Positions 12,503-55,858 of a DNA stretch of 64,000 nt are shown piece after piece. Origin of the DNA: Sporopachydermia quercuum (Eukaryota); contig BCGN01000009.1 in the NCBI GenBank assembly GCA_001599295.1, positions 558,001 through 622,000 of the forward strand, in the 5' to 3' direction. Made by a program: the position numbers and the translations under genes. Each line of letters opens with the position of its first letter. Position 1 is the stretch's first letter. A model generated the notes under the pieces. It ran no database searches. It was not told where the DNA came from and saw only the letters and a program-made list of their open reading frames with translations.

Positions 12503-13624
12503 AAAGCATTAACTATCATAGAAGTGAACAATTAATATAAGAAATATAATGGAGAATTAGGTGTGAAGTATTATCCGTTTTAATGTAATGTAGTCAGCAG
12601 AAAAGTAAATATTCGAATCCCCTATAATCCTCGATTACTTCTACAATCTTGCTTCTACAGTTAAATCCACGTAAACGAAAGTTCGATGAATCAAACAAAA
12701 CATATATTCGACAATTTATATACAGGAAATGTAGTAGACCACGACCACTAAGATTTCAACTCTCGAAAACCTAATGCTATTCTCAAAGATCCACACGATC
12801 CACACAATGAAAGAACTCACGAGGTAATGTAAGGGTACATTCTGTGGCTTAATCTTCTCCATAACCAGAACCCAAGAGCTATTGATAATATTTCAGTCAA
12901 TTGGGGCAGAAACAGGAGTTTTGATAAGAAGAAAATAGATGTTAAAATAATGTAAAAAGTAATCCAGTGAAGGGAACATGATGTTGAAACAAAAACACTC
13001 GATGATGAGCTTCGCTGTATTCGTGCTATATAATTAGTCGACTCATTTAGTTTGGTTAGTACACAATTTGATGTGAATTCAAAGGTCAGGAAAGGCCAAT
13101 AACATCTAGAATGATGAATTGGAGTAACTAGAATATTGATAGCAATTGGAAATGAACTAATAGTAAAAGGGACTTTGATGGAAAAGAAGAAACTTGCATG
13201 AAAATTTGTAATTTATAGTGGAACTCTGATTTAACGAGGTTCGCAGGTATGATATATACAACAGTATGTAATATTGGACACGGTCATGGTGATGAAGGAA
13301 TTACAAGGATATTGAGAAGTTATGACTGGAGGCCCACACAAAAAGTTCTAACAGCCACTTAGCTTGTTCTGACTTGTACTTGCTGAGATTAAATCCTGTA
13401 CCAAAAACGTGACCTGAAGGTTCTTCTCCTGCTCGCTGGCCTAGATTACGAATCTCATCGCTAATATCGCATTCCCGTTATAGTCATAGTGGATAAACGG
13501 TAGCTTAACCATTTTACTAAATAGCAGAATCCCAATTGACACGTACAACTATCTACAAAACTGGCACAGGGTTTAGTCTTACACAAGAAAGCATCTCTCT
13601 TTCACAGCCACAACAGAAATTATC

Positions 13625-17302: not shown

Positions 17303-19510
17303 ATGCCATTGAACTCCCTAGTATATGATCCAGCATTTGACGCCCCTGGAACCGGTATTAAATCACTGAGCATTAACGACGAAACGATTACTTCCAGTAT
17401 GCAGGCACCAAACTCTCCTAACGGCAACTCTCCCATGTCAACTGCATCTATTTATATGAATGCTGACATTTCACGATCTACGTCAAATCTACTGGGAATG
17501 AGAAAGAAGGCCCAGAGGAGCACAATATCAGGCCTGGCTGCTAATGATGATTCTCTACCAGTCTCTCCTGTGAAATCATCATCTTCAGCTGCCAATCCAC
17601 AATCTTTGACTTCATCAACCAGAGACTCTGAAGAACCTGTGAAGAAGACCAAAGAAAGATCATCAACAGTGAGCAGATTATCCCGTTTTATCCCTGGGGC
17701 TTCTAAAGTGCATTTACGGTTAAACCATCAAGACGAACGAGAAAAGGAAAAAGAGAAGGAAGAGGAGAATGAAAAGGAGAAAGAGAGAAGTAAAACAGCA
17801 CATGTAAAGCAAGGAAGAGCATACGGCCGAAGGAGCAATTCTGTCTCCACCGCTGATCTTCCAGGACATATTTACCTTAGCGATAGACCAGTTTATGATG
17901 CGAGCTCGAGCTTGTCTCCTCATGGTACAGGAGCCAAAATAAGGGCTACTGGTGGTTCCTCTGCTTCATCTATCTCTTCGTTATCCTCAGGAACGAGTTC
18001 TGTTACTGCCCTAACAGCTTCGGATACTGCATCCACAACGAAGCACCAAAAAGTCTCCGGGGTGCATCATTCAGCAACCATTTCAGCTTCTAGTAAAGAG
18101 AAATACTTTGCCAGAAGGAACTCCGACGAGAAATCCCCTTCTTTAACTCCAACAGGATCCATTGCAACTTCTTCTTCTGGCGCAACTGCCACCTCCCGCA
18201 ACGGTTCTGACGTGCATAGAAGCGCCTCCATTTCGTCCTCAGGGTTAAGCAAAAACCATCATCAGTCGCGATTTATTGTCCTGGATAATGGCTCGCATAT
18301 CCACAACCTGAAAAACACAAAACGGCAAGAAAAGCTGAGCCATTTGATCAAAGACCTCATTGGCGGGAAACGAGCGCGAGACGAAGCAGTGTCCGCCGTG
18401 CCAGAGCTTCTCAAAGAAATCATGCCCCAAACCATAGGGAAGAGCCCCCAGGAGCCACAGAGTCCGCTTGGCACACCGCTTGGTACACCCATTGGCACAC
18501 AGGAGTCTTCAGGATCTGGTAGACCGGGGTCCAAACAACCACCACTCCTGATCTCCAATTTGATCAACAACGTGGAGTCTGGCAGCGAGCTCTTCTATGG
18601 GTCCTCCAACGTGAATCCTGCTACAGACGTCCGGCCTTTTTTTGAGAAATACGGCCGGTGCCAAGAAGTAGTTGGCCGGGGTGCCTTTGGCGTAGTACGC
18701 ATCTCCCATAAAATCGACCCAGCGTCCAACAAGGAAACTCTGTATGCTGTGAAAGAGTTCAAGAAGAGACCGCACGAGGACGAAAAGCTTTACTCCCGCA
18801 GACTTACCAGCGAGTTTTGTATCAGCTCAGGCCTCAAGCACGTCAATATCATCAACTGTTTAGACCTTTTGAAGGACGTGAAAGGCGAATACTGTGAAGT
18901 CATGGAGTTCTGCGACGGTGGGGACCTTTACTCTCTTGTTATATCCTATGGCAAACTGGAATATCTGGAGGCGGACTGTTTTTTTAAACAGATTATGACG
19001 GGGGTCAATTTCATGCATGAAATGGGCGTGAGTCATNGAGATCTAAAGCCGGAAAACCTGCTTCTGACGTCAAACGGAACTATCAAAATAACAGATTTCG
19101 GCAGTGCCGAATGCTTTAAAATGGCATGGGAACGGGAAGTACATTTGAGCCAAGGTCTGTGCGGGAGCTCGCCTTATATTGCGCCCGAGGAGTACGTGAG
19201 TAAAACGTTTGATCCCCGGCCATTGGATGTCTGGGCGTGCGGTATAATTTATATGGCCATGCGAACGGGGAGACAACTGTGGGAAACGGCAAACAGCAAC
19301 GACGAATTCTATCAGCATTATTTGAAGGGCCGGAAGAAGGAAAGTGGCTATGAGCCTATTGAGAGTCTGAAACGGGCGCGCTGTCGTAATGTGATTTATT
19401 CCATATTGGATCCTGTGCCAGAACGGAGGCTGACGGCAAAGCAGGTGTTGAACAGTGAATGGGGGCGAGAAATTAGAGTATGTGAAGCGGGATTGCATGG
19501 TTGTTATTAG
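17303..19510 (+). CDS. SAT4: Hal4/Sat4-family Ser/Thr kinase, 735 aa
   Basis: Kinase motifs GRGAFG, YAVKEF, SEFCISSGL, HxDLKPEN, DFG, GSSPYIAPEE, plus the Hal4-type HNLKNTKRQEKL segment. First ATG at 17303. Confidence 0.85.
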   Translation: MPLNSLVYDPAFDAPGTGIKSLSINDETITSSMQAPNSPNGNSPMSTASIYMNADISRSTSNLLGMRKKAQRSTISGLAANDDSLPVSPVKSSSSAANPQSLTSSTRDSEEPVKKTKERSSTVSRLSRFIPGASKVHLRLNHQDEREKEKEKEEENEKEKERSKTAHVKQGRAYGRRSNSVSTADLPGHIYLSDRPVYDASSSLSPHGTGAKIRATGGSSASSISSLSSGTSSVTALTASDTASTTKHQKVSGVHHSATISASSKEKYFARRNSDEKSPSLTPTGSIATSSSGATATSRNGSDVHRSASISSSGLSKNHHQSRFIVLDNGSHIHNLKNTKRQEKLSHLIKDLIGGKRARDEAVSAVPELLKEIMPQTIGKSPQEPQSPLGTPLGTPIGTQESSGSGRPGSKQPPLLISNLINNVESGSELFYGSSNVNPATDVRPFFEKYGRCQEVVGRGAFGVVRISHKIDPASNKETLYAVKEFKKRPHEDEKLYSRRLTSEFCISSGLKHVNIINCLDLLKDVKGEYCEVMEFCDGGDLYSLVISYGKLEYLEADCFFKQIMTGVNFMHEMGVSHXDLKPENLLLTSNGTIKITDFGSAECFKMAWEREVHLSQGLCGSSPYIAPEEYVSKTFDPRPLDVWACGIIYMAMRTGRQLWETANSNDEFYQHYLKGRKKESGYEPIESLKRARCRNVIYSILDPVPERRLTAKQVLNSEWGREIRVCEAGLHGCY

Positions 19511-20233: not shown

Positions 20234-20330
20234 GGGAGTGTGGCCGAGTGGTCTAAGGCGCCAGCTTCAGGTTTTGTTCTTGAGTTTGCTGGTCTCGAAA
20301 GAGGCGTGAGTTCGAACCTCACCGCTCTCA
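20234..20330 (+). tRNA. tRNA-Leu(CAG) with a 15-nt intron (20272-20286)
   Basis: Acceptor GGGAGTG/CGCTCTC with discriminator A73, A-box TGGCCGAGTGG, anticodon stem CCAGC/GCTGG with loop TT-CAG-G^T, variable arm CTC-GAAA-GAG, T-arm GTGAG-TTCGAAC-CTCAC, T5 terminator at 20337-20341. Confidence 0.93.
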
Positions 20331-24033: not shown

Positions 24034-25560
24034 TTAATAAGTATAATCATTTCTAGCGTTAGGATTATTGTTCATTGAAATACCATTATTCACAGTATTA
24101 TTGATCAGTTGATTCTCACCATACTTTCCTATGGGCATTCCAACATTTTGAATCATGCCAATATTGCCATCGCCAATATTAATCAAATGGCCAGTAGCTG
24201 CAGGCACTCCAGTTGGACCACCATTTAATCCATTCATAGGCTCATTCCCTTGATCTTCATTTCCAGCACCAACAACTCCTTGTGGCGGTTGCTGTGACTG
24301 CTGTTGATGCTGATGCCGTTGCTGATATCTATAATGATTAGTACGATCTCTTCCCCAGCCACATTTCAAGAATTTACCATTAATAGCATATCCACTCAAT
24401 TGAACAATGGCCAGGGCAGCTCTTTCATGACTATCGTACTTTACGAAAGCAAACCCTCTATCTGGTTGATACTTAAAATCAACGATGTAACCAAAATTTG
24501 ATAATAATGGTAATAGATCATTCTGACTAGTGTAAGGAGTTAAATTACCAATATAAACAGTTGTCTGCCAATTTGGTGACTGTCTGAGAACCATTTCAAA
24601 CGATTGAGGGGTCATTAAATTAACTCCCATAGGTATTGATGGCACTGTAGGTCCCATCAATGATCTATTACCATGAGGATGATGATTCTGGTGAGGATTA
24701 TTATGTTGATGGTGATGATGTTGTTGATTAGGAGCAACCTTTTGATTAGCCCAGTTACAACGGATTTGTCTTGATCCAATCCAAGCTCGATCCATAGTTG
24801 CCAAAGCATTTTCAGCATCATTTATTTGTTTGAAAGAAACAAATCCGTATCCTCTTGATCTACCAGTTGACATGTCCCACATGACATGAGCTTCAATTAT
24901 AGAAGGGAACTTAGCAAACGATTTATATAGTAACTCGTCGTTAACATCAACAGAAAGATCACCTACAAATACATTGAACACATCAACTTCGTATTTAGTT
25001 TGCTGGGTTTGATAGGCATAATTGATCACTATTTCTGTTTGATTCAAATGTCTTTTATTGAGGGTATGGAGAGCCAATTCTGCTCCATTCATATCTCCAT
25101 ATTCAATGAATGCATAGTTAAATCCAATTCTGTTCTTATCGGGAAAGATTTTAATAGAAAGTACTTCACCAGTAACTGAGAATAAATCCCTGAGCATTTG
25201 TTCAGTTACGTTATGATCAATACCTCCGACGTAAAGGATTTTCCTGTTCAGTTCTCTGCCGCCTTTTGTCGCTGAGATTGGAGTTGCTGGACGAGCATTT
25301 GGATTCGACGAAACATTACTAGGTGTGTTATTCGTTGTAGTACTAGAAGCAGTATTAGAGGTATTATCTGTATTAGAAGCGGTATTATTACCTGTTGTGC
25401 TTGAACTGGCAGTACTGTCATCTACTGTATCATTTGATTCAATATTCGATTGAGCTGATATTGCGTTCGCTACTGCATCATTAGATTCAAGTACATGGTC
25501 TAATCCTTTATTTGACTCGCCAATATTGATGATTGGCTCACCCAAATTTTCCTCAGTCAT
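24034..25560 (-). CDS. PUB1: Poly(U)-binding three-RRM protein Pub1 (TIA-1 family), 508 aa
   Basis: RRM1 ILYVGG/NYAFIEY, RRM2 VFVGDLS/RSRGYGFVSF, RRM3 TTVYIGN/RGFAFVKY, Q/N-rich tail. Confidence 0.92.
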   Translation of the reverse strand: MTEENLGEPIINIGESNKGLDHVLESNDAVANAISAQSNIESNDTVDDSTASSSTTGNNTASNTDNTSNTASSTTTNNTPSNVSSNPNARPATPISATKGGRELNRKILYVGGIDHNVTEQMLRDLFSVTGEVLSIKIFPDKNRIGFNYAFIEYGDMNGAELALHTLNKRHLNQTEIVINYAYQTQQTKYEVDVFNVFVGDLSVDVNDELLYKSFAKFPSIIEAHVMWDMSTGRSRGYGFVSFKQINDAENALATMDRAWIGSRQIRCNWANQKVAPNQQHHHHQHNNPHQNHHPHGNRSLMGPTVPSIPMGVNLMTPQSFEMVLRQSPNWQTTVYIGNLTPYTSQNDLLPLLSNFGYIVDFKYQPDRGFAFVKYDSHERAALAIVQLSGYAINGKFLKCGWGRDRTNHYRYQQRHQHQQQSQQPPQGVVGAGNEDQGNEPMNGLNGGPTGVPAATGHLINIGDGNIGMIQNVGMPIGKYGENQLINNTVNNGISMNNNPNARNDYTY

Positions 25561-28492
25561 TATTCACTAAAAATATGAAATAAAAGTGCAGATCAGTACT
25601 AGTTATAGAATCAGCCGATCAATCAAGGATAAGCTATTACTTGCCAAAAAAGAATATTTCTTGTTTTTTGTGATAATTAATGCAGAGCAAGCAGCAAAAA
25701 TACCAATAATTATTGCAATAAATCAGTAATCACTTAATACAAAAATCAAATCAGGAAGTCTTCTGATTTTATTGTCGATAGTTCTAAAAGGTTATAAAAT
25801 TGTTCAGTCAATGAACTTCATTAATCTAGCTCTTTTTTGCAGTATAATCCGATACAAGCGAAATGAAAAACAGGAACAATATATAAATAACTAATATTTA
25901 TATTTAATTGTTTTTCCAAAATTCAGTTATTATTTTAGAATAATAAGAACTGGNAATAAAGAAATTTATTATGATGGTAAAGAAGAAAAGAAAGTTGCAA
26001 GGATGGAAGGAAGAAAGTATGGAAAATGAAAAGTTTCATTATGTAAATGAATGAGAATATGGAGACGAAGATGAGAAGAATGGATGAACATACGTTGGAC
26101 AAAAGTATGAGAATACAAGATAAAAATGTAAAGGAAAACGAGAAGAATGAATATATGAATTTTAAATACTATAGGGGATTTATTTTTATTGATCTGAACC
26201 TACTTTTTTAGAACTGTTTAGTTGAAATGTACTATTGGAAATGATTTTTCAAAGGGCCTAAGAAAATATGTTACATGATGAAGGATGAAAGGAAATTGGT
26301 TTAAAAAATCTAGGCAAACTCGGACTGGAACGAAAAAACAAAAATGAGAATGGCTATGTTGAATACAGGCGAGTTGAATGCTCGGATTATTTAAATTTGC
26401 CTACCGTGATTGTTCATTTATGAATGTATGAAAACGAGAATAGAACTGAGAGAGAAAATGAATCATTGAAAGAGAATCAAAAGGAAGAGGCTTGAGAAAA
26501 GTCACGACAAAATGAATAGTATGATGAGATTGTATCGATTCTTAGGCTTAGAAAAAAACCAGTAAAAATAATGTAAGGTAGTATCGGAATAAGAAGGAAA
26601 ATACTTGTATAAAAAACGGCTCCGGATATCCTGTTAAGTAGAAAGTTTGAGAGTACTGGCCAGGCTATGGAAATTATGCTGTGGGACAATTAGAAGACAA
26701 ACAATCAAAACAGTTGAAAAATAAAATAAGATTCAAAATGTCAGAAAATTATTTCTGACGTTAATACGTGGGAAATCGGTAAGTAATAAAGAAAGGAACG
26801 TAAGAGTCAACAAATCTTCGTAATACGGTAGTCTAGATGATGAGACTTGCTATTCTCGTTTGCAATTGACTACCTGTTGACTTTATTTCAGATTTGTAGA
26901 CCAACTGAGCCTGATTGCACATCCGTAGATCCTTACAACTTGCGATTTCACTTGATCTGTCAATACGACGATCAATTCCTCTGTTTTACCAAAAAAAACT
27001 AGTGATTCAAGTAATCAGTAACTCCGATCTCCCAACCATCGGAACTGTAAAAACCAAGTAAATTTAAATTTCTTAATACATTAAGGAATAAGCTTTTTCC
27101 CTAACGTATTTCAATTAATGAGAAGTAAAATGAGAGACTGTTCATTGGTTGGATGTCATGGATATGTCATGAATGTCGGGGATGAGATTGCTGGCCAGGT
27201 AGAACAAAGCGTGCCCATAGAGAAGACAAGCGAGATGTGTGGGAAGCAATAGAAGGGATGAAATAAAACTACAGTGGGTAGAAACAAAAAATCCATATAC
27301 TTGGTTCAAGTTGATAGAATTGCCTACTGTTGTTTGATATTCATTCATTTTGGATATATCTTTTCGCAAAGAGTTAATCCCCAGGTCATACATCTGCCAG
27401 TAGTATGATTCCGGCACCCTTTTCTCATCAACACTTTTTGACATTGTCTTGTCTAAATCAGACTCATATAACCGTTATAGTAATCTTTCATAGTCCCATT
27501 ACCCATACATAACCGACATGCGATGGAAACGGAAACGATATTTTTGCATATGGCAAACCGGAAATAATATCTTGTCACTGTTTAGCTTTAAATGTTCAAG
27601 TAATCACTATTATGACTGAAGCTTTAACATGAACTTACTCAGATATATGACTATTTCGTTCCCTATAAATAACAAGCTACCAAATATAAGAAACAATAAT
27701 TGACATATTTTTGGCTACAATTTCAAGATTATACAAGTAAAAAAAAAGTGCGTTGTGTTTTTATGATACTAGTAAATCTTTTGTTTGCTTACAAAGCCAT
27801 CACGGTGGAAAGAACAAAGTATACAAAGAAGAGTCAATTGTGAGGATCAACCGGTAGGCTGATTGGTATGCAATCGATATACTATATGTTCATTGCCTGA
27901 TATTGAAGACAGACTTGTTCTTCCTGGTAATAAGATAGGATAGCTTCTCCTGGTGATTTTTCAATTTTTCATCAGATTTTGTATAACTTTTCAGCTGGGA
28001 AATCCTATTCATTCTGCCATATTTTTTTTTATTGAGGTATCGTTCTGCTACCTTATCATATGGGCAATACAAATCGTGCACAGTTCGTTGTACAAATATC
28101 AACATCAACTCCAAAAATAGATCTAAAGGAAAACTAGTCACACAATAGTAACTTCTTGTCTGCTTCCAAGGGAAAGAAGAACCTGGATTAACAATTCAAC
28201 TCGATCATTTGAAGCTTTATCATACTTTTGCTCTCATCAGTGCAATACATTATAGTTCATAGTACTACAACTACTGCAATCCCTTGATGCACCAATTAAA
28301 AGGACCTTTGGAGCTTTACCGGACGAAAAGTCTGCTATTTATTTTATTGATTCATTATTTGGTGAACAGCAACCGAAGATACTTTGTCTTATCCACAACA
28401 CCGATTGTTGCATAGGAAGTGGAACCCATTGCTTGTAATTTAGACGATAACAGATCTTTGGCTTACAGCATAAAACTATAGCACATCAACAG

Positions 28493-28707
28493 GTAAAGAA
28501 TCAAATTTTCTTTTTGATTTATTTGATTGCAGATCATAAAATTGATAATTCCTATCATCGCTTAATCTAACTTAATGCTCTTGATTTGCGGAATTCAACC
28601 ATATTCAATAGCGAGTGCAATTCTGTTATCTTTGTTCCATAGCATGAGATCACTATTATTTTCACCTTCTTTTTTCTTCAACTCATGCTAATGTTTGCTA
28701 CCATTAG
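28493..28707 (+). other. Probable 5'-UTR intron of the pogo-derived gene
   Basis: AG|GTAAAG at 28493, pyrimidine tract, branch TGCTAAT (28686-28692), TAG at 28705-28707, 11 nt before ATG 28719. Confidence 0.45.
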
Positions 28708-28718
28708 AATCTATCACA

Positions 28719-30908
28719 ATGAATGCTCACACACCTAGCAACATAGCAGGCAGTAATACACTGCATTCAATCAACTTCACACCTAACAATGAATCACCGA
28801 ATACGCCTGCAACATTACCATTGATAAATTCCTCAGCATCAACGTCAGTATCAAATGCTGTTTTATCTCCTACTACTTCTGGTATCAATGCATCGATTGC
28901 AATATCACCAGAATTTGCAGCAGTGGACTCCACACTAATTGCCCAGCAGATGATATCAGCTAATCATACAGAACAAAAACGACCCCTAGCATCAGAACGA
29001 CATTTCCAGACAACAAAACAGAAAAGTAAACGTTTGAAAAGAAATTCAGCTGAATATCAGGAGAAAGAAAGGAAAATCCTATTAGCTAAGAAGGAATTCG
29101 AGGAATCTGGTAGGAAAATACCAGTAAGGCATCTTTCAGCGAAATATTCAATAGCAAAATCTTCATTGTATGATAGGCTGAAGCTGAAGAATCCATCAAA
29201 GAGCTATTTGGAAGCTCATGAGAAACAACAGAAGCTAAGAAAAGTAGAAGAAGAATTGCTGATGTATTATATAGAGTGCCAGCTATGTGTGTCTATGAGA
29301 CCTACTAAGGCTGTTCTGGAGAGTTTAGCAGAAGATATCCTGCTTATTAGAAACAGACGTTATGGGCAGTGCAAGGAACATAGAGAGAATGAAGAACATA
29401 CTGAAAATGAGGATGCTATAAGAAAGATATATGATGCTAGTAGCAAAGAAAACATCGACGAACTGAATAATATCGAAAATGCTGAAAATGACAAAGGTAG
29501 CATTGATTCCAATGGTTATACAGCCAGGACAAAAGTAGNCGTTGATAGTGAATTACTGGATATTTCTAATAGTCTGAATGATGTTGGTGCAATGACGTCG
29601 CCATCTAATTCCAACGATCAAATTGATAACGCTGGTAGTGCCAATGACAAGAATATTACTAATACAAATGGCTCAGGTGATGTCAGCATGAATATCAACC
29701 CAGAATTAACATCACTTCCCCATTCTTCCTTCTATATCCCAAGTGCTCCTGTTAGCGAACGAATTGAGCAGGAATCACAAAATGCTGCACTACCCACAAC
29801 AACACACAATCGCTCTTACAATATCTCCAATCAAAGCCCAAACGTCATCACTAATATCAACACCATATCTAACACGCCTACCGCTTGTTCTACCAGTTTC
29901 AACCCTCTGACTCAAATAGGTAAGAATTGGTTCATAAGATTCAAAGAACGGTATCAACGAAGACAATTTGGCCCTGGTTATTTAATGGACTTCCTTTCCA
30001 TGGATACGTACAACGTAACTTGCAAATTAACACCAGAATTGTATATATATTCATGGCTTGAAAGAACAATCAATATGTTTTACATAACTCCGGATCACGT
30101 GATCTGTGTTTATGAAACTTGTGACCTGACCTCAAAGACAAATCAATGTTCCATAATTGAATCTGTGACATTGGAACAAAAATATCTGACACCTTTGTTT
30201 GTGTTCAAAAAGGAAACCAAACGTCAGGACAAAGACGACAATTTCATTAATACTAGAATCTATAGTGAGAATGATGATAATATTAGAGATCAGAACACAT
30301 CAGCAAGTACTGCCTTGACAAACGGTGAGAACACTTCAAATGTCCCTATTATTTACACAGACAGTGGATTTATTTCACCATTACAATCAATCCACTGGTT
30401 AGAAACGGTTATTACACCATACATTACCGATGGGCAACCTACTGTCATTAGTACAGCCAAAAGTAAGAGTACGGTGAATACATCAGCTCCATCAAAGAAG
30501 TATTCGTTATTACTAATAGAAAACTCAATGATAAATATTCTCTCTTCAGAATTTATAGCCAAGTGCAAGGAGTCCAAGATAATACTTTTCTTTGTCTCTT
30601 CGTTCGATCGGTACTTCAAGAAGAATGGTAAAGCAATAGAAAACTTTTGGGACAAGCAACAATCAAAGCAAGTTGGAACAAGCAGTACAAGTATGGATCG
30701 CTCTTCTAGCATAAAGGTTCCTATTCTTTGGAAGTTTTCTTATGGCTTACTTGCAAAGCTCAAGCAAAAGCAGATTCAGCTGTTACTGAATAATGAACAT
30801 GACTATGTGAAGCATTATCTGAGTATACGACGAGCTATTATTGATCGGCAGGACAACATGAGCAAAACCGAATCATCAAGAACTTCTGGTGATTTCCCAA
30901 TTGAATAG
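28719..30908 (+). CDS. pogo/Fot1 (Tc1-mariner superfamily)-derived CENP-B-like protein with degenerate DDE domain, 729 aa
   Basis: psq-like HTH (RHLSAKYSIAKSSLYDRL), CENP-B/Tc5 HTH (QKLRKVEEELL...PTKAVLESLAEDIL...IGKNWFIRFKERY) and DDE_1-like blocks (ITPDHVICVYET, SIIESVT...LTPLFVFKK, SGFI...WLE, LLLIENS...EFIAKCKESKIILF). No terminal inverted repeats seen. Confidence 0.75.
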   Translation: MNAHTPSNIAGSNTLHSINFTPNNESPNTPATLPLINSSASTSVSNAVLSPTTSGINASIAISPEFAAVDSTLIAQQMISANHTEQKRPLASERHFQTTKQKSKRLKRNSAEYQEKERKILLAKKEFEESGRKIPVRHLSAKYSIAKSSLYDRLKLKNPSKSYLEAHEKQQKLRKVEEELLMYYIECQLCVSMRPTKAVLESLAEDILLIRNRRYGQCKEHRENEEHTENEDAIRKIYDASSKENIDELNNIENAENDKGSIDSNGYTARTKVXVDSELLDISNSLNDVGAMTSPSNSNDQIDNAGSANDKNITNTNGSGDVSMNINPELTSLPHSSFYIPSAPVSERIEQESQNAALPTTTHNRSYNISNQSPNVITNINTISNTPTACSTSFNPLTQIGKNWFIRFKERYQRRQFGPGYLMDFLSMDTYNVTCKLTPELYIYSWLERTINMFYITPDHVICVYETCDLTSKTNQCSIIESVTLEQKYLTPLFVFKKETKRQDKDDNFINTRIYSENDDNIRDQNTSASTALTNGENTSNVPIIYTDSGFISPLQSIHWLETVITPYITDGQPTVISTAKSKSTVNTSAPSKKYSLLLIENSMINILSSEFIAKCKESKIILFFVSSFDRYFKKNGKAIENFWDKQQSKQVGTSSTSMDRSSSIKVPILWKFSYGLLAKLKQKQIQLLLNNEHDYVKHYLSIRRAIIDRQDNMSKTESSRTSGDFPIE

Positions 30909-31389
30909 TAGTGCTGGTTTCTGATGTACTACTAAGAATTCTGCCGGTACTTATCCATTCCAGAACTTGAATTGGACAGTCACAAGCTTCATCAGGCTGT
31001 ATCAAATGATTCCACTCATAGTGCAGAGTGAACGAAGACGATCTTAATTAACAGCCAATTGAGAGATATTCAGTGAGTTGTATTATAGGATAAAATCTAA
31101 TTAATTGTAAATGTATGATTGCAGGTAAAAGAAGCATATTCCACCTGGGGTATAATACAATCCCCTAATGTATAAGACGAAAGATGAATTCAAAGATAAA
31201 AAGTAGATACATTTACATTCAAATGAACTATTAAGACCTTTCATATAAACAAGAGCCATGTTGAAAACATGAATATATTCTACCAATACATTATGCTATA
31301 CTATAAGCTGTGTAACTACAGTATACATATTCTTTCTCTATACATCATATGTCACATATTCCTCACCACATCAACCATCTTCTACCTTT

Positions 31390-33162
31390 TTATGCTTTTC
31401 TCTTTCTTGCCTTAGTAGCTCCCTTAGAAGATCCACTGGTTTTACTTTCAGCTTCCTCAGCAGCTTCCTTTTTCTTTTTTAACTCAGCAAATTCTTCTGG
31501 TGAAACCTTGATGGGATTCTCCTCAGTACCTTCTTCGTTAGAGCCAAATACTGAAACAGCAGCACTAAGAATAGCACCCCAGGTGGCAAAAAATAAAGCA
31601 AAAACAATAAGGAAGACCAAAGTGTTGATAGTTGACTCGATTGGCCTTCCAGCAACGACGCCAATAGGGTCAGCACTAAAGTCAACAACCCAATCACAGA
31701 ACTCTCCAAAGAACTTTCCATATACTGGAGAAATTGAATTCAACCAGTTAGTAATCAAACCAAATATAGAATCTCCACTTCCTTCAGAGTTGAATAACTC
31801 GCCAGCAGATTCTGGTGGTGTAATTGGTTCTTCAACAGGTGTTTTAGATTGTCTCTTTTCTTCCGCTTTTTCTAGTTTGAACTTCGGAACAAATGTTTCG
31901 TTTCCAATAAATTCTGCTTGTTCAACTGAATGGCCAAGGTATATATTATCAAAGAGGATATCTGGTTGCATAGTCCATAGTTCGAATCCAATGGCTCCAA
32001 TAGGTTCTAAATTGGAGGGAGTCGTATCTTCGTAGTAATCAGGGTTAGGGATCAACCTTGGAGTCCATTCACCTTTATAATCAGGGTTAGGAATCAATGG
32101 GGGAGTATATTTACCTTTATATTCAGGGTTAATAATCATTGGTTGTTCCCAAACACCACAACCATGATTTTCGCATTCAGGGTTGGGAATATAAGGAGCG
32201 ACCCATTCTCCATCTTCTTCGTCGTCCCAATCCTCTGGTTTCTCAGCTTCAGGATCGATAATATATTCCGGAGCCTCATCATCCCAATCATCAGGTTTAA
32301 CAGCATCTGGATCAGGAATTTCTAGTGGTGCATCTTCATCCCAACCTNCGGGCTTTTCTAGTTTCTCCGGATCAGGAATCATCTCATCATCGACCCAATC
32401 CTCAGGCTTGGTATCATTTATATCTTCAACCTCCTTTGGAGGGTTCAATGAAGGCTTCAAAACACCCTCAACAAGTAAATTTCCAGCTTTCACAACATCA
32501 CCGTTGATTCTGATTTCAAAATCTTGATTTGGCTTGATTATGAGTGTATAAAGTGTAGAAGTATTCACAATACGAGCTGTTGGTGGTGATGATAAATGTT
32601 TTTCTTCATATTCTCCAGTCTTTTCATTCTTACGCTTAACAATGAAATGGACTTTGTTGGTGTAGCCACATTTATCAGGACCAAACATCAATTGGTATGG
32701 AGTATCTCCACTGAATTCCTCTTCATTGTCTATTGAAGACAAAAGTTTGAGATAAGCACCACCACATTCAATACCTTGTTGAAGCTTGACTTCGTATTGC
32801 AATACTAATGTGCCATTAGTATTGTCAAAAGGTTCATCAAGCTTTGCAGAAATAGCATGACGAGCAGCAGGTGTCTTCACAACAAGGCCTAGATCATTCT
32901 TGAATCCTGGCAACACCTTGCTCTCTTCAAATGCCCATTTTCCTCTATATGATAACTCTTCTGGACCATCAGTTGTCATATGATGAGAAGGCTTCCAACG
33001 AGTTTCATATCCTTCGTAGAACTGTTCAAAGAAAGGAGCATCAGGTACTGACAGTGGCTTGAACTCTGGATGCTCTTCCGAACTACCAGCTTCTGCAACA
33101 ACTGTGAAAGCATTATAAGTAGCTGCTAAGATAGCATAAAGCAATGATTGACTTAACTTCAT
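31390..33162 (-). CDS. CNE1: Calnexin, 590 aa
   Basis: Signal peptide, LVLQYEVK...[17 protein letters not shown]-domain KPEDWD and GEW repeats, C-terminal TM and basic tail. Confidence 0.96.
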
Positions 33163-37335: not shown

Positions 37336-38278
37336 CTATAAATCTATTCGCAACGCAACCCAGAAATCCGATACTATCTTCCTCTTAGAATTCATCACAA
37401 CAGGGTTAAACCCAATCCAATGAAAATCGTTCATTATTCTTTTTAACTGGCTTACATTACGATCAACAAATACTAAAATACTTTCACAATGAAGAGAATC
37501 AATGGCAAGATCCAACAACGCGATAATCCTTTGCTTGAACCCGAACTTCCAATTAACTTTTGGTGTCTTATTCGATTTACCTGATATCTTCTCTTCCCCT
37601 TCAATCATTCCTTTAGTCAAGAATAGGTGAAGAACATCGTGTTCAATAAATCCTATCCATTCTTCATCACCATTATAATCAAACAGCTTGAAATAGCTCC
37701 TCAGCTCAAAGTTTGATGATCCGTGAATTCTCCTACAAAGAGAACTTGTTGATGTACTTGATTCCATTGAATATGATCTTACTTTTGATGATACTACCTC
37801 CTCTTTCTCTAGTCGATCAAAAAATGCATTTGATTCACTGAATATGCTAGTTTCAGCACTATAGCCAATGCTACTATAACTATTCTGTCGATACTCATTT
37901 ATGAATCCTTGCGTTGATTGACTTTCATAGCTGGAGATAACTTCCTCGCTATACTTAATACCTGTAATCGATATCCCTTGACTACAAAACCTCTCACATT
38001 TTATTGCCAGGTCTCTCGATGCCCTTTTTATATCGTCGATGTTGAGATGTGAATCTTTATGCATCATCGAAAAGGGTCTTTCAAGTTTCGTTTCAGGAGC
38101 GCCAATCTGCTGTTTGACCATCGCAACTGATATATTTGAACTCCTGAAAGGAGTCACTGTTATATGTGAAGCATGATGCTAATGTAGTCGATGAGGGTGA
38201 ATATTGTTTTACAGGATAGTTGTTGGTGAAATCTTCAACGTTATCATCACCGGTATTGTTTAGAAGTAAATCAGCCAT
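37336..38278 (-). CDS. OAZ1: Ornithine decarboxylase antizyme, made by +1 programmed ribosomal frameshift, about 313 aa
   Basis: ORF1 (38278-38093, 61 aa, LASC motif) ends TGG CGC TCC TGA. The +1 frame continues GAA ACG AAA... to the stop at 37336 and carries the antizyme domain FKQRIIALLDLAIDSLHCESILVFVDRN...FHWIGF. Confidence 0.93.
38092..38098 (-). other. +1 frameshift site UCC-UGA-A
   Basis: Plus-strand ttcagga (38092-38098) reads TCC TGA A on the minus strand, the canonical antizyme shift site. Confidence 0.92.
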
Positions 38279-44478: not shown

Positions 44479-45915
44479 ATGGCTCCTCATATATCAGAAA
44501 TTAATAATGAAGTAGAATCATTTGATCATGGATCTCGATTTGATTATTTGATTAATGAGAAAGAGTTATCCTTAGGGCAAAAATCTCTGTTACCCTTACT
44601 TGAGAAATTTACTGTTGATCATAGCAGAATACAAGCTAAATCAAATGAAGAGATTGCCAAGGAGAATTATGCTAAGTTATTAATTGGAAATGCATTAGAA
44701 AATCACATTAAATGTATTGATGCAGAAACTTGCGACGCTTCTGAAGAAGATTCCTTTTTCGTTGCCGATTTGGGTGAAGTATACCGTCTTTTTCTTCGAT
44801 GGAAAAAGTTGTTACCAAGAGTTCAACCATTCTATGCAGTGAAATGCAACCCTGACCCAGTTGTATTGTCCTTACTTAGTTCTTTAGGTACTGGATTCGA
44901 TTGTGCTTCAAAGAACGAAATCGATCGCGTATTGAAACTTGGTGTGGATCCTACGAGAATCGTTTATGCCAACCCCTGTAAAGTTGCCAGTTATATCAGA
45001 TATGCTGCTTCAAAGCAAGTGTCATTAATGACCTTTGACAATGCTGATGAATTATACAAACTTAGAAAGTATTATCCTGATGCAAGATTATTGCTCAGAA
45101 TCTCAACCGATGACTCTGAAGCTCAATGTCAATTGTCTAACAAGTATGGTGCTTCTTTATATGCTGGTAGTCAACTTTTGGAACTTGCTAAAGCTCTTGA
45201 CTTATCAGTTGTTGGTTGCTCTTTCCATGTCGGCTCAGGAGCTACTTCTTTGGAACCATGGCAAAAAGCTATTCGCGATTGTCACGAGATCTTCGAATTA
45301 GGAAAGAGACTTGGTTTTGATATGAACCTATTGGATATTGGTGGAGGATTTGTTGCTTCCAGCTTTTCAGAGGTTGCACAGTTTGTAAGCCCCTTCCTTG
45401 ATCATTATTTCCCTGAAGAGTCCAATGTTTCTATTATTGCCGAGCCTGGTCGTTATTTTGTTGCTGATGGTTTCACAATGGCTTCTCATGTCATTGCTAA
45501 GCGTGACGTTGACGATGCGTCCAACAGAAGCATGATCTATCTCAACGATGGTGTGTATAAGAACTTGAATTGTATCTTATTTGATCATCAAGTTCCTGTA
45601 CCAAAAGTTCTAACCTACAACGGTGAATTCAAATACTTTGAATCTGAATCACTTCATGAACAAAACATGAATTCCACTGATGGCGTTGGCTCTTATACCT
45701 GTTCTATCTGGGGTCCAACCTGTGACGGTTTGGATTGTATTTCAAAATCTTGTAAATTGACTTATTCCTTACAAGCTGGAGATTGGATGTATTTCTCTAA
45801 TTTGGGTGCTTATACTTGTGCTGCTACCACACAGTTTAATGGTTTTGAAGGTGAATGTGGTATCATTTATGTCTGTTCTGAACCAGGCATTGCGAAAGAT
45901 TTGAATTTGAATTGA
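44479..45915 (+). CDS. SPE1: Ornithine decarboxylase, 478 aa
   Basis: PLP lysine FYAVKCN, FDCAS, FHVGSG, AEPGRYF, WGPTCDGLD, GAYT. First ATG at 44479. Confidence 0.97.
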   Translation: MAPHISEINNEVESFDHGSRFDYLINEKELSLGQKSLLPLLEKFTVDHSRIQAKSNEEIAKENYAKLLIGNALENHIKCIDAETCDASEEDSFFVADLGEVYRLFLRWKKLLPRVQPFYAVKCNPDPVVLSLLSSLGTGFDCASKNEIDRVLKLGVDPTRIVYANPCKVASYIRYAASKQVSLMTFDNADELYKLRKYYPDARLLLRISTDDSEAQCQLSNKYGASLYAGSQLLELAKALDLSVVGCSFHVGSGATSLEPWQKAIRDCHEIFELGKRLGFDMNLLDIGGGFVASSFSEVAQFVSPFLDHYFPEESNVSIIAEPGRYFVADGFTMASHVIAKRDVDDASNRSMIYLNDGVYKNLNCILFDHQVPVPKVLTYNGEFKYFESESLHEQNMNSTDGVGSYTCSIWGPTCDGLDCISKSCKLTYSLQAGDWMYFSNLGAYTCAATTQFNGFEGECGIIYVCSEPGIAKDLNLN

Positions 45916-53131: not shown

Positions 53132-55858
53132 TCATCTTCGTTCAAAACCTTTCAGGACTTTGTCGGCAATTGCATCTACAGCCCCCTGAGGTTGTAGCAA
53201 ACTGACATTTCTTTTCCCCGTTGCTNGCACTCTGAACATCCTGATCTTGGTTCCAGAGAATATCTTGACATTGATAATGTCTTTAATACTGGTAGTAGTG
53301 CTAGCATTGTCACCACTATTAGTACTACTGCTCGTGTTATTCCCGNGAAATCCAAATTTAAACCCAGATATAGAAATTGGTAGATTGAAAGAGAAATCAG
53401 TGATTCCATCAACTGATTTCAACTCATTTTCAAATATTGATATCCAAATAATTGACTTGTACCATTTAAACAACTGACTAGTCCATTTGAATTGAATACA
53501 ATTAGTATGCTGATAAGTAGATATAACGGTTTCTGGCAGTAACACAGTTAACGGTAGTTCTCGGATCTTTTCGATATATTCGAATGAGTAAGGAGCATTA
53601 ATTGCTGCTGCAGGGTTCTTAGTAGAATCAGTACTTCTAGCAGTATCTCTTGTTGTAGATGCTGGAAGAATATTGCTATTCGCTTGAGAATTAACATACA
53701 AATTCTGCTTTATGCTGGCAATGAGTTTTAATAGGATTGGTACATTTTTAGGCATAGAAACCGTATCATTAGTGATTTTCTGTTTCCCGAGTGAGTTTCT
53801 GCTTGGAATACTTGAGGATTGGTTATTCTTACCGGAATTTGAAGTGGACGAATAAGAAGATTCAATTGAATTTCTTTCGTTGTTTCCATGATTTATTGAG
53901 CTTTCAGGATCAACAAACCCTCTTCTTCTTTCATTCTCTTCAAAGAAGCTTTCCTCGATTTCAAGGTTCTTGTATTCTCCATTGTATTTATCTAAACATC
54001 TTGTCAAAGAGTCATATAGATATTCCAATGTTTTTTCATTGTTCATTATAGTGAACGTAACAATTACGTTGTCGTGATAGTTATTGATTATCATTAGGCA
54101 AACAGCTTCGAATAAATACTCAACCAGTTTGAATCTGCTACTGCTGATAGCAAGATCGTTAGTAATAGCAGTCGTGCTATTGCCATTAGCAGAATTAATG
54201 GTAGAAACACTATTCGATCTAGCTTTATTACTGTTGCTAATCCTTCTGACCAAATGGCCTTCTTTACAAAACTCCTGTAGGAGATTGAGTATGGACTGAA
54301 TTGAGGTAATTGTATATAATTTACCATTGATTGATAAATTATAAATACATTTAATCAAGTCTGGTACTAATAAATATAAATTATTGCTATTATTGTTGAT
54401 TCCAGCTTTAATCAATGAATAAACCACGGTAATAAGCAAATCGTAGTATGAGCCATTGAACGAATTGATATTGAATTCAATTGGCGATAAATATGTCAGG
54501 GAAGGTGACTTGCCATAATAAGCACGCAAATCGTCCTGAGTGACTGCCGTTGAAACTGCTTGAATAACAGTTGGAAATGTTGATAAATAAACTAGAATAC
54601 TAGCAGATATCCTTGATAGATTTATATCAATAGCTGGTGAATTGCCATTGGCAGCACTACTTGCAGTATCAATAAACGTCCTGAGATAGGACTTGTTANT
54701 ACTATTGTAGTCTGTTGATTTACCAATAATAGCTAACAAACTATTGAATAAACTAATGATATCTTCACGGCTGCTCAGAACGTAATTCCTTAACTTTTTG
54801 TTGCATTGAATTAACTCCCAAACCAGTATCACTGTATCTTTTGCCGCCTTGGACGAGATTAGCCCTTTAAGTCCGTCCCACAGATACTCCAGTTCAGGCT
54901 GTTTATGAATTTTGCTTGTATAATAACGAACCATGTTCTGCTGCTCATCATTCGTATATACTAGTAGAATATTCAGAATCTCTTGACAGTGTATTACTAG
55001 CTGGTTGTACGGTAAAGTTGTAGTACTGTTAAAGGTAGAAATACCATTACTACCATCGACAGTTAAGCCTTGGAATTTAAGAATAGTATTAAGCAGTGAA
55101 CAAGAGAGTAAAAGCAGCTTTACTTTATTGAGATTCATTAATATCCTCAAATAGTTGGATTCTTCTTCTTTATACATTCTCCTACTACTAATTACCAGAA
55201 TCAGACGCAAAGCCTCAATTCTATTCAAAAGTATTGCTTGAGATGTAGAGGAGACTGCTGATGCAGTTGCCAGAGAGTCTCCTGACCCGATTCCTTGTTC
55301 CCATAGACGATATTCAATTGCTGGCCTTCCGTCAGGCTCGCCGTGTTCCCCGCTTGGTGCAAGCTCATTGTCAATAGTAAATCCTTTGATGAATAGTAGA
55401 TCAATCGTAGCACTAACAAATGACTCGGCAAACGAAGAATCGTCTTTAATCCCTACAACTGTTTCTTCCCATCGTCTCAAATCGGAACCTTCTTCCTCGT
55501 ATATAAATGGAAATAGCCTTGTAAGAAGTCGTACGCAATTAAGCAGTTGGCTGTGGAGCTGACCAGAAGGAAGGGTATTGCTGGATGCACTCAGTGCAGG
55601 AGTTGTAGATGTTTCAGTATCTAGTGTGCTTAGTAGATATATCAGTCTTTTGATTAAAACTTCAATTAGAAGCTTGAAATTGCCGATATTTCGCGATCGC
55701 AGAAGGCGAATATCGTTATTTGTTAATGCTGAGAAAATATCTTGACATGATAGGTCAGCGGAGTAGAATCTGGCCCAATCGATCGAATTAGATGTCTTCG
55801 TGTTAATCAGCGTCGAGATATTCTCTTTAAGCAGAAGTTTGGACCCTTCAGCTCCCAT
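53132..55858 (-). CDS. ECM30: Hid1/Ecm30-family protein, 908 aa
   Basis: Myristoylation-type N-terminus MGAEGSK, LNCVRLLTRLFPFIYE, LWEQGIG, C-terminal FSGTKIRMF. Follows CNA1-TSR2, as in S. cerevisiae. Confidence 0.82.
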   Translation of the reverse strand: MGAEGSKLLLKENISTLINTKTSNSIDWARFYSADLSCQDIFSALTNNDIRLLRSRNIGNFKLLIEVLIKRLIYLLSTLDTETSTTPALSASSNTLPSGQLHSQLLNCVRLLTRLFPFIYEEEGSDLRRWEETVVGIKDDSSFAESFVSATIDLLFIKGFTIDNELAPSGEHGEPDGRPAIEYRLWEQGIGSGDSLATASAVSSTSQAILLNRIEALRLILVISSRRMYKEEESNYLRILMNLNKVKLLLLSCSLLNTILKFQGLTVDGSNGISTFNSTTTLPYNQLVIHCQEILNILLVYTNDEQQNMVRYYTSKIHKQPELEYLWDGLKGLISSKAAKDTVILVWELIQCNKKLRNYVLSSREDIISLFNSLLAIIGKSTDYNSXNKSYLRTFIDTASSAANGNSPAIDINLSRISASILVYLSTFPTVIQAVSTAVTQDDLRAYYGKSPSLTYLSPIEFNINSFNGSYYDLLITVVYSLIKAGINNNSNNLYLLVPDLIKCIYNLSINGKLYTITSIQSILNLLQEFCKEGHLVRRISNSNKARSNSVSTINSANGNSTTAITNDLAISSSRFKLVEYLFEAVCLMIINNYHDNVIVTFTIMNNEKTLEYLYDSLTRCLDKYNGEYKNLEIEESFFEENERRRGFVDPESSINHGNNERNSIESSYSSTSNSGKNNQSSSIPSRNSLGKQKITNDTVSMPKNVPILLKLIASIKQNLYVNSQANSNILPASTTRDTARSTDSTKNPAAAINAPYSFEYIEKIRELPLTVLLPETVISTYQHTNCIQFKWTSQLFKWYKSIIWISIFENELKSVDGITDFSFNLPISISGFKFGFXGNNTSSSTNSGDNASTTTSIKDIINVKIFSGTKIRMFRVXATGKRNVSLLQPQGAVDAIADKVLKGFERR

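Follow-up and report, generated by a model that had tools for sequence, protein, structure and literature searches.

Transposases of the pogo superfamily have been domesticated recurrently as DNA-binding host proteins, among them CENP-B, Abp1/Cbh, Pdc2 and the vertebrate TIGD/JRK/POGK proteins. In budding yeasts, Pdc2 is a pogo-derived transcription activator with a CENP-B-type helix-turn-helix (HTH), a non-catalytic remnant of the DDE_1 core and S/N-rich regions. A Fot-like element exists in Yarrowia. The subject of the present analysis is a gene of Sporopachydermia quercuum that appears to belong among these domesticated transposases. It is an open reading frame (ORF) at positions 28719-30908 (+) of a 64,000-nucleotide stretch of contig BCGN01000009.1 (positions 558,001 to 622,000, assembly GCA_001599295.1), referred to here as the window. 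The encoded protein is called X, and all residue numbers refer to it. X is probably a cryptic domesticated pogo/Fot transposase, that is, the product of a catalytically dead host gene that is likely to act as a nuclear DNA-binding regulator. As the recurrent domestication of pogo transposases is already known, the kind of gene is not new.

The Fot/Fot-like family of the pogo superfamily includes Fot1, Pot2, Tan1, Flipper and Aft1, as set out in the available portion of the survey by Gao et al. (2020, PMC7386202). The same portion describes these transposases as carrying HTH_psq and/or HTH_Tnp_Tc5 together with a DD35D triad, in elements with terminal inverted repeats (TIRs) of mostly 40-60 bp and TA/TAA duplications (PMC7386202). 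Its account of distribution gives the Saccharomycotina only Lemi, in two species, and places Fot in the Pezizomycotina and Basidiomycota (PMC7386202). Abp1, Cbh1 and Cbh2 of Schizosaccharomyces pombe and mammalian CENP-B likewise derive from pogo transposases by domestication (Mateo and Gonzalez 2014, PMC4231638; PMC10799480), and Abp1 is the subject of a 1997 paper (PMC2134285). A second budding-yeast gene of pogo origin was not found in the literature searched, which is not proof of its absence.

Relationship to pogo-type transposases

Comparators for X were found by scanning public contigs with a short degenerate pattern for the pogo/Fot motif pair (DGHxSH, a fixed gap and QPLD). This yielded two loci on one contig filed as viral and 37 loci in contigs filed as prokaryotic, mostly short contigs of metagenome-assembled genomes (MAGs). 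Three additional loci came from a metagenome scan queried with the first ORF found. One of the loci, L002:1667-2641, is a genuine pogo/Fot transposase as judged by its Pfam matches to DDE_1 (4.9e-30), HTH_Tnp_Tc5 (6.7e-7) and HTH_psq (1.9e-5). A phmmer search with L002 gave 38 ORF pieces, from which 28 were kept (at least 360 aa, E<1e-10); L001, a duplicate of L002, and shorter or weaker pieces were dropped. Alignment A1 was made with 27 comparators and alignment A2 with X and 23 comparators, the latter using MAFFT. All 27 comparators of A1 match Pfam DDE_1 at E≤0.001, whereas X does not.

With a custom profile hidden Markov model (HMM) built from the 28 ORFs, X obtains 32.4 bits (E 1.9e-12 at Z=1) through four collinear blocks. 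The first block carries most of the score, pairing X105-214 with HMM positions 18-121 at 25.3 bits. It is followed by X397-413 (HMM 123-139, -1.2 bits), X471-575 (HMM 214-292, 7.7 bits) and X609-626 (HMM 304-321, -0.2 bits). The score was not reached by any of 1000 global shuffles (maximum 5.2) or 1000 shuffles in blocks of 25 (maximum 13.8), and the reversed protein scored -9.8. Among the 56 ORFs of at least 100 aa in the window, X alone scores (33.9 bits; runner-up 4.2), and no second pogo/Fot-like ORF was found with this HMM. A sub-HMM restricted to the core scores residues 390-729 at 16.0 bits. The shuffle maxima were 6.0 and 5.0, taken over those 714 and 747 shuffles out of 1000 for which a score was returned.

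Profile-profile comparison with hhalign leads to the same relationship. Residues 396-626 of X match template columns 153-354 with a probability of 96.2-96.5% (E 1e-9 to 2e-9, 180 columns), and residues 114-215 match columns 56-152 with 87-92%. In both cases none of 50 block shuffles reached the observed score, which was 75.1 against a maximum of 24.7 for the core and 49.8 against 18.4 for the DNA-binding part. With clean nulls for both the custom HMM and hhalign, the descent of X from a transposase of the pogo superfamily, and of the pogo/Fot type, is statistically supported.

The two halves of the protein differ in how closely they follow individual branches of the superfamily. The DNA-binding part fits 13 fungal Fot-like comparators at 33.6 bits and an hhalign probability of 93.8%, compared with 7% for the 15 other pogo-like sequences. 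The core fits both groups by hhalign, with 85.9% for the Fot-like and 93.2% for the other pogo-like comparators. At the level of the family, the A2 profile also matches the DNA-binding domain of CENP-B (1HLV_A, E 7.1e-6) and the HTH_psq domain of LCoR (2COB, E 8.6e-6).

As a separate matter, the places where the comparators were filed deserve a comment. Intact pogo/Fot-like ORFs with Pfam DDE_1 lie on short contigs filed as bacterial or archaeal MAGs, namely L006, L010, L016, L019, L022, L028, L030, L034 and L041 (all on JBEVXV01... contigs), and also L001/L002. A single MAG labelled Sedimenticola sp. supplies 9 of the 37 motif-scan loci, and an IMG/VR contig filed as viral carries two pogo/Fot-like copies in opposite orientation. 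These ORFs appear to stem from eukaryotic contamination or chimeric binning and not to be prokaryotic genes.

Domain organisation of protein X

The protein begins with a tail of 104 residues (residues 1-104, 28719..29030, +), 43% of which are S/T/N/Q. Nothing in the transposase profile corresponds to this tail, and the HMM and hhalign alignments of X begin at residues 105-114. The translation reads KQKSKRLKRN at residues 99-108 (29013..29042, +), a basic cluster that is a possible nuclear localisation signal. The first HTH, which is HTH_psq-like, spans about residues 119-161 (29073..29201, +) and is indicated by a sub-threshold Pfam match, the custom HMM, hhalign and protein-language-model features.

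The second HTH is HTH_Tnp_Tc5-like and aligns as two pieces, X173-215 and X396-413. Its first two thirds lie at about residues 173-215 (29235..29363, +) according to hhalign and alignment A2. Its last helix occupies residues 396-413 (29904..29957, +), where HMM block 2 and hhalign agree and both W404 and R411 are kept. In the 1HLV alignment of the family profile, GKNWFIRFKERY (residues 401-412) of this helix corresponds to SNGWLDRFRRRR of CENP-B. The two hhalign matches abut in the template at columns 152 and 153 but are 180 residues apart in X, and residues 216-395 (29364..29903, +) are therefore regarded as an insert within the second HTH. The insert lies just before the last (recognition) helix. 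Its net charge is -16, as opposed to +10 for the DNA-binding part at residues 105-215, and 41% of its residues are S/T/N/Q. It also contains the only ambiguous base of the ORF, an N at 29539. A reading of the locus made earlier from the sequence alone (the sequence-only reading) had named both pogo/Fot HTH motifs. These motifs are recovered by the custom profile (X105-214 and X397-413) but not at the Pfam cut-offs.

A remnant of the DDE_1 core, with an RNase H-like fold, is assigned to residues 442-626 (30042..30596, +) on the basis of hhalign, the core sub-HMM and language-model features. It holds two S/T/N-rich loop insertions, at about residues 500-541 and 574-594. The C-terminal tail (residues 627-729, 30597..30905, +) has a net charge of +7, and helices are predicted in it with low confidence. 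G724 and P727 could possibly be a weak remnant of the G..P motif at the C-terminus of the transposases. A complex prediction with two copies of residues 627-729 returned a score of 0.00 and is uninformative either way.

When guided by alignment A1, AlphaFold2 models residues 396-729 with a pLDDT of 62.3, rising to 80-93 in the core blocks. A Foldseek search of the PDB with this model returned nothing at E≤0.001. An exhaustive structural aligner placed 30 DDE integrase/transposase cores at the top (Z 8.1-11.4), including Mos1 (10.4), Metnase (9.5) and Sleeping Beauty (8.9), with everything else at or below 6.2. The model is driven by the family alignment, and it is therefore counted as a consistency check only.

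Searches for relatives of protein X

A number of results weigh against the assignment of X to the domesticated pogo transposases. In Pfam, neither DDE_1 nor HTH_Tnp_Tc5 matches X at E≤10, even when eight sub-segments are searched. HTH_psq is the sole Pfam signal, at residues 136-161 with 12.3-15.1 bits (E 0.019-0.14), and its best value of 15.1 bits stays under the cut-off of 20.4 bits. CENP-B_N and HTH_ABP1_N gave no match. No homologue was returned when 5.8 billion protein clusters with lengths of 400-1276 aa were searched by word index, using the whole of X (E≤0.001) and residues 405-729 and 95-235 (E≤10). An exhaustive HMMER scan of 1.84 billion representative proteins likewise gave none at E≤0.001, a level for which about 45 bits or more are needed, such that weak relatives could escape. 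Searches of the PDB using phmmer with the whole protein and with its N-terminal part found nothing relevant. BLASTP of X against the Fot-like transposase L002 was not significant (best E 0.14). Without an alignment, AlphaFold2 models the C-terminal 455 aa with a pLDDT of only 31.6, which is unusable. Finally, the insert of 180 residues could have disabled the second HTH in which it lies. Related loci for residues 395-729 were also sought in prokaryote genome contigs and in metagenome contigs, and none were found in either. Four proteins encoded next to X were looked up by exact sequence as well, and the collection contained none of them.

Despite their weak E-value, the two best BLASTP pieces of X and L002 share one register. 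Searches with protein-language-model features associated the C-terminal 455 aa of X with DDE_1 clusters at a score of 0.91, with all ten of the best family-bearing matches in agreement. Residues 95-235 were associated with CENP-B-N/HTH_psq clusters, some of which also carry HTH_Tnp_Tc5, at 0.94 with 197 of 256 features in common. Scores of 0.9 or above arise in 4-10% of shuffled proteins, and the two queries cover parts of X that do not overlap. The profile search for HTH_psq, HTH_Tnp_Tc5 and DDE_1 proposed with the sequence-only reading thus has a mixed outcome: the custom pogo/Fot profile recognises X, while in Pfam two of the domains are missed and the third is sub-threshold.

These results bear on the view that the likeness to pogo transposases is due to chance and that X is an unrelated, fast-evolving yeast protein. 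The lack of anything significant in Pfam, the BLASTP value and the rate of high feature scores among shuffled proteins are what such a protein would give. It would not be expected to show four blocks in the right order at 32.4 bits, when none of 2000 shuffles scored at or above 13.9, nor the hhalign probabilities of 96% and 87-92% with clean nulls. MAFFT, HMMER and hhalign moreover arrive at the same register, and the two independent feature searches name both halves of one architecture. A chance resemblance is thus very improbable.

A more serious alternative is that X goes back to PDC2, either as an orthologue that evolves fast or as an old paralogue, in which case it would be neither an independent domestication nor a new family. 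The overall plan is shared, as Pdc2 likewise combines a double HTH with a dead DDE_1 core and S/N-rich regions. The Pdc2 proteins of yeasts would, however, be expected to match, and no protein was returned at E≤0.001 by HMMER and none by the word-indexed searches (the Pdc2 content of the libraries being unverified). A set of control genomes yielded no DDE_1 protein at all, and hence no Pdc2. In addition, the N-terminal HTH of X scores as HTH_psq, as in Fot elements, and X carries the 104-residue N-terminal tail and the insert within the HTH. This origin is considered unlikely, though it is the strongest of the competing explanations.

Loss of the catalytic residues

The position of the first catalytic Asp corresponds to Leu447 (30057..30059, +) in hhalign and in MAFFT, which pair YIYSWLERT of X with DIYNMDETG of L002. 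HMMER and BLASTP set the Glu of the first-Asp motif on E448, which amounts to the same register. The motif L447-E448 thus lies at 30057-30062, and 26 of the 27 comparators have Asp in the column of L447. The sequence-only reading had placed the first Asp at a YET motif (30111). This was a misregistration, although the Asp is lost all the same. According to HMMER, hhalign, MAFFT and BLASTP, Y465 of that motif pairs with the next strand (VICVYET against VICGSET), and Y465 was rejected as the first catalytic position on the basis of this register. In any register, the first catalytic Asp is lost.

The second catalytic Asp corresponds to Glu601 in MAFFT and BLASTP or to Asn602 in the ungapped hhalign alignment (30519..30524, +). 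The DGHxSH block reads ENSMIN in X, while D-G-H is found in all 27 comparators. The earlier statement that the LDG of the second Asp reads IEN at 30519 agrees with this, as E601 lies at or beside the second Asp. For the third Asp, the QPLD block had been described as absent, and the alignments concur. The comparators' PPHSSHLLQPLD is missing from X at the junction of F626 and V627 (30594..30599, +), where hhalign against the 13 Fot-like comparators places a 13-residue deletion and MAFFT a gap at the L-D columns. D631 was considered as a retained third Asp and discarded, as this needs an ad hoc gap that no alignment program produced.

Among the 27 comparators, 34 columns are conserved at 85% or more, and X agrees with nine of them: W404, R411, E448, V461, P492, G550, L598, G724 and P727. 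The only one of these that lies in the three catalytic blocks is E448. By alignment, positions that support the fold survive in X and those of the active site do not. Taken together, the aligned columns show that X lacks the catalytic DDD triad and that its catalytic residues have been lost.

Inverted repeats and copy number

The absence of TIRs noted in the sequence-only reading holds in the region 26500-32500. The best inverted pair there matches at 16 of 19 positions, compared with 16-18 of 19 in 12 shuffles, and is thus not above them. Pairs of at least 16/19 number seven, against two to five in the 12 shuffles. Inverted repeats around X are at chance level, with no TIRs.

Copy number had been proposed as a check, and X behaves as a single-copy gene. 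In the whole 17.1-Mb contig set of one sequencing run, which may be where this DNA comes from, a single contig covers the ORF at 80% likeness or more, a count limited to at least 80% identity, so that more diverged copies could escape it. Other sequencing runs contributed one identical contig of 203 letters at a depth of 2 and otherwise short conserved parts of two neighbouring genes.

X might instead still be an active transposase, encoded by a very divergent element and using unusual residues for catalysis. Such an enzyme would explain why the long ORF is intact, and it could draw on E601, which occupies the second Asp position or the one next to it, and on D631, 30 residues further on. It is difficult to reconcile with a Leu at the first Asp position and a deleted third-Asp block. 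The missing TIRs, the single copy at 80% or above in 17.1 Mb and a location among housekeeping genes also speak against it, and this is the least probable of the explanations considered.

Reading frame and coding statistics

In the standard code, the first in-frame ATG of X is at 28719 and the stop at 30906-30908, giving 729 codons plus stop (28719..30908, +), as supported by the ORF list, the sequence and the codon statistics. The lone N at 29539 falls in a GNC codon, which makes a stop impossible. The intact 729-codon frame of the sequence-only reading is therefore borne out, the N being harmless. The probable 5'-UTR intron of the same reading is unsupported. Between 27445 and 28740, there is neither a GTAWGT nor an exact TACTAAC, and one branch site with a single mismatch, at 28146, is too far upstream for the proposed intron. 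Isolated single Ns are present at 29539 and also within 17303-19510, 31390-33162 and 53132-55858. They leave undefined residues in several translations and prevent look-ups by exact sequence, but break no frame seen.

The choice of code was examined using two neighbouring genes. Pfam Pkinase scores 166.4 bits with CTG read as Leu, compared with 158.0 (code 12) and 159.7 (code 26), and Hid1 scores 217.4 bits compared with 172.8 and 186.5, respectively. As CTG=Leu gives the highest scores in both genes, the standard code is taken to be right, and the readings of X with CTG as Ser or Ala were dropped for their lower scores. CTG is used unevenly in the window: X, Hid1 and the kinase have many, but the genes for ornithine decarboxylase and calnexin have one each. 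It behaves as Leu by Pfam score in all of these genes.

With the stop frequency of the window (0.063), the probability that 729 codons stay open by chance is 3e-21. The in-frame codon log-likelihood of X is 0.201 bit per codon, within the 0.09-0.39 of 15 other window ORFs, and the codon score is positive in frame in five of five segments and negative in the off-frames. The codon use of X is host-like. Together with the open frame, this argues that X is a selected host gene. Since neutral decay at such divergence should fill the frame with stops, it can be inferred that purifying selection acts on it.

This evidence also bears on whether X could be an immobile, decaying pogo/Fot relic without host function, its open frame being simply left over. 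A relic would have lost its catalytic residues and TIRs, as X has, and the protein library searches, in which X found no homologue, would fit as well. Yet none of the 729 codons is a stop, where about 6.3% of random triplets would be, despite a divergence beyond the reach of Pfam DDE_1. The host-like codon use extends to every segment, and structural positions (W404, R411, G550 and the hydrophobic strands) are kept while those of the active site are lost. The decaying relic is accordingly regarded as improbable, more so than a Pdc2 origin but less so than a chance resemblance. A domesticated host gene is the preferred explanation.

Genomic setting

X is flanked by a three-RRM gene (24034-25560, -) and a calnexin gene (31390-33162, -), and the neighbours expected from the earlier description (PUB1-X-CNE1) are thus present. 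The window further holds genes for ornithine decarboxylase and antizyme, a GATA factor, Hid1 and a kinase, as well as WD40, DnaJ, dyskerin-like, calcineurin-like, TSR2, SET and PanE genes. It is ordinary, gene-dense, yeast-like sequence, and the flanks of X are housekeeping genes. The GC content around the ORF (0.36-0.37) is similar to that of the rest of the window.

The intergenic region between X and the divergent RRM gene (25561-28718) is unusually long at about 3.16 kb. It has one ORF of at least 80 aa, which encodes 100 aa (27142-27444, -) and is without a Pfam match. A long 5' UTR, a non-coding RNA or a small gene missing from the annotation may be located there. Elsewhere in the window, Rfam reports a tRNA at 20234-20330 (+) with 45.7 bits over 97 nt, and ARAGORN reports no tRNA in the window; this is probably an intron-containing tRNA gene. 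The H/ACA snoRNA snR43 lies at 12727-12920 (-), with a full-length Rfam model match of 95.6 bits. The antizyme ORF (Pfam ODC_AZ, 4e-13; 37336-38121, -) and the ornithine decarboxylase gene (44479-45915, +) are separated by about 6 kb, such that the regulator and its target are near neighbours.

Proposed origin and function

The ancestor of X would have been the transposase of a pogo-superfamily element with the Fot/Fot-like architecture of HTH_psq, HTH_Tnp_Tc5 and DDE_1. From this ancestor X is proposed to have retained a positively charged, CENP-B-type double HTH and a folded RNase-H-like core. Of the three catalytic positions, two no longer have an acidic residue and the second has at best a Glu, and the TIRs and the multicopy state would have been lost as well. 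The S/T/N-rich N-terminal tail and the acidic insert in the second HTH would have been gained. The protein is predicted to enter the nucleus and to bind specific DNA sites via its two HTH units. The dead core could serve as a scaffold for self-association or for the binding of partners, and the acidic, disordered insert may draw in other factors. The analysis shows the homology of X, its domain order, its catalytic loss, the lack of TIRs, the one copy in the assembly, the open frame and the host codon use; selection on X, nuclear DNA binding and any cellular role are inferred.

Given domestication, the role that is slightly favoured is that of a sequence-specific transcription regulator working in the manner of Pdc2. 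By analogy to Abp1/Cbh1/Cbh2 or CENP-B, X could be a factor in chromatin, in retroelement silencing or in binding of centromeres or origins, which is clearly less likely. Some other role is less likely again. The sequence-only reading of a domesticated host DNA-binding protein therefore stands with respect to pogo/Fot descent, catalytic loss, lack of TIRs, single copy and host-like frame; its YET register is wrong and its intron unsupported. It is tentatively suggested, with somewhat less than even confidence, that X is an independent, lineage-restricted Fot-type domestication in budding yeast, and hence a new regulator whose recognition helix is split off by an acidic disordered insert.

X is a concrete candidate in a budding yeast poor in transposable elements (TEs), and no relative could be detected among billions of database proteins. 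The curated Pfam models DDE_1 and HTH_Tnp_Tc5 miss it, whereas its full architecture emerges with a small profile focused on the lineage and with profile-profile comparison. As far as the available part of a fungal co-option screen describes, it rests on Pfam domains such as DDE_1 (PMC10799480), and X would therefore escape it. Counts of TE co-option that rely on Pfam are therefore lower bounds, as genes of this sort go unrecognised by curated domain models. If the independent domestication is true, cryptic transposase-derived regulators may be systematically under-counted in TE-poor yeasts.

Comparison with known systems

The Fot family and X have the same domain order (HTH_psq, HTH_Tnp_Tc5, DDE_1 core), and it is the 13 fungal Fot-like comparators that give the DNA-binding part of X its highest scores. 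Unlike these elements, X is without the DD35D triad, having L447, E601/N602 and a missing block in its place. It also lacks the TIRs of 40-60 bp, occurs as a single copy and escapes Pfam detection. The 180-residue insert in the second HTH and the extra tails further set it apart, and it is unusual for a CENP-B-type HTH to contain a disordered insert of this size.

With Pdc2, X would share the status of a budding-yeast host protein, a CENP-B-type HTH, a dead DDE_1 remnant and S/N-rich regions. It differs in its N-terminal tail and split HTH, and no sequence match was found in the library searches, the Pdc2 content of which was unverified.

In relation to CENP-B, Abp1 and the Cbh proteins, X differs in having no Pfam match to CENP-B_N or HTH_ABP1_N and no sign of a C-terminal dimerisation domain, and its surroundings are ordinary gene-dense sequence. 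The likeness lies in the DNA-binding domain with its double HTH, through which the A2 profile matches 1HLV_A (E 7.1e-6), and in a dead transposase core that appears to have been retained in a host protein.

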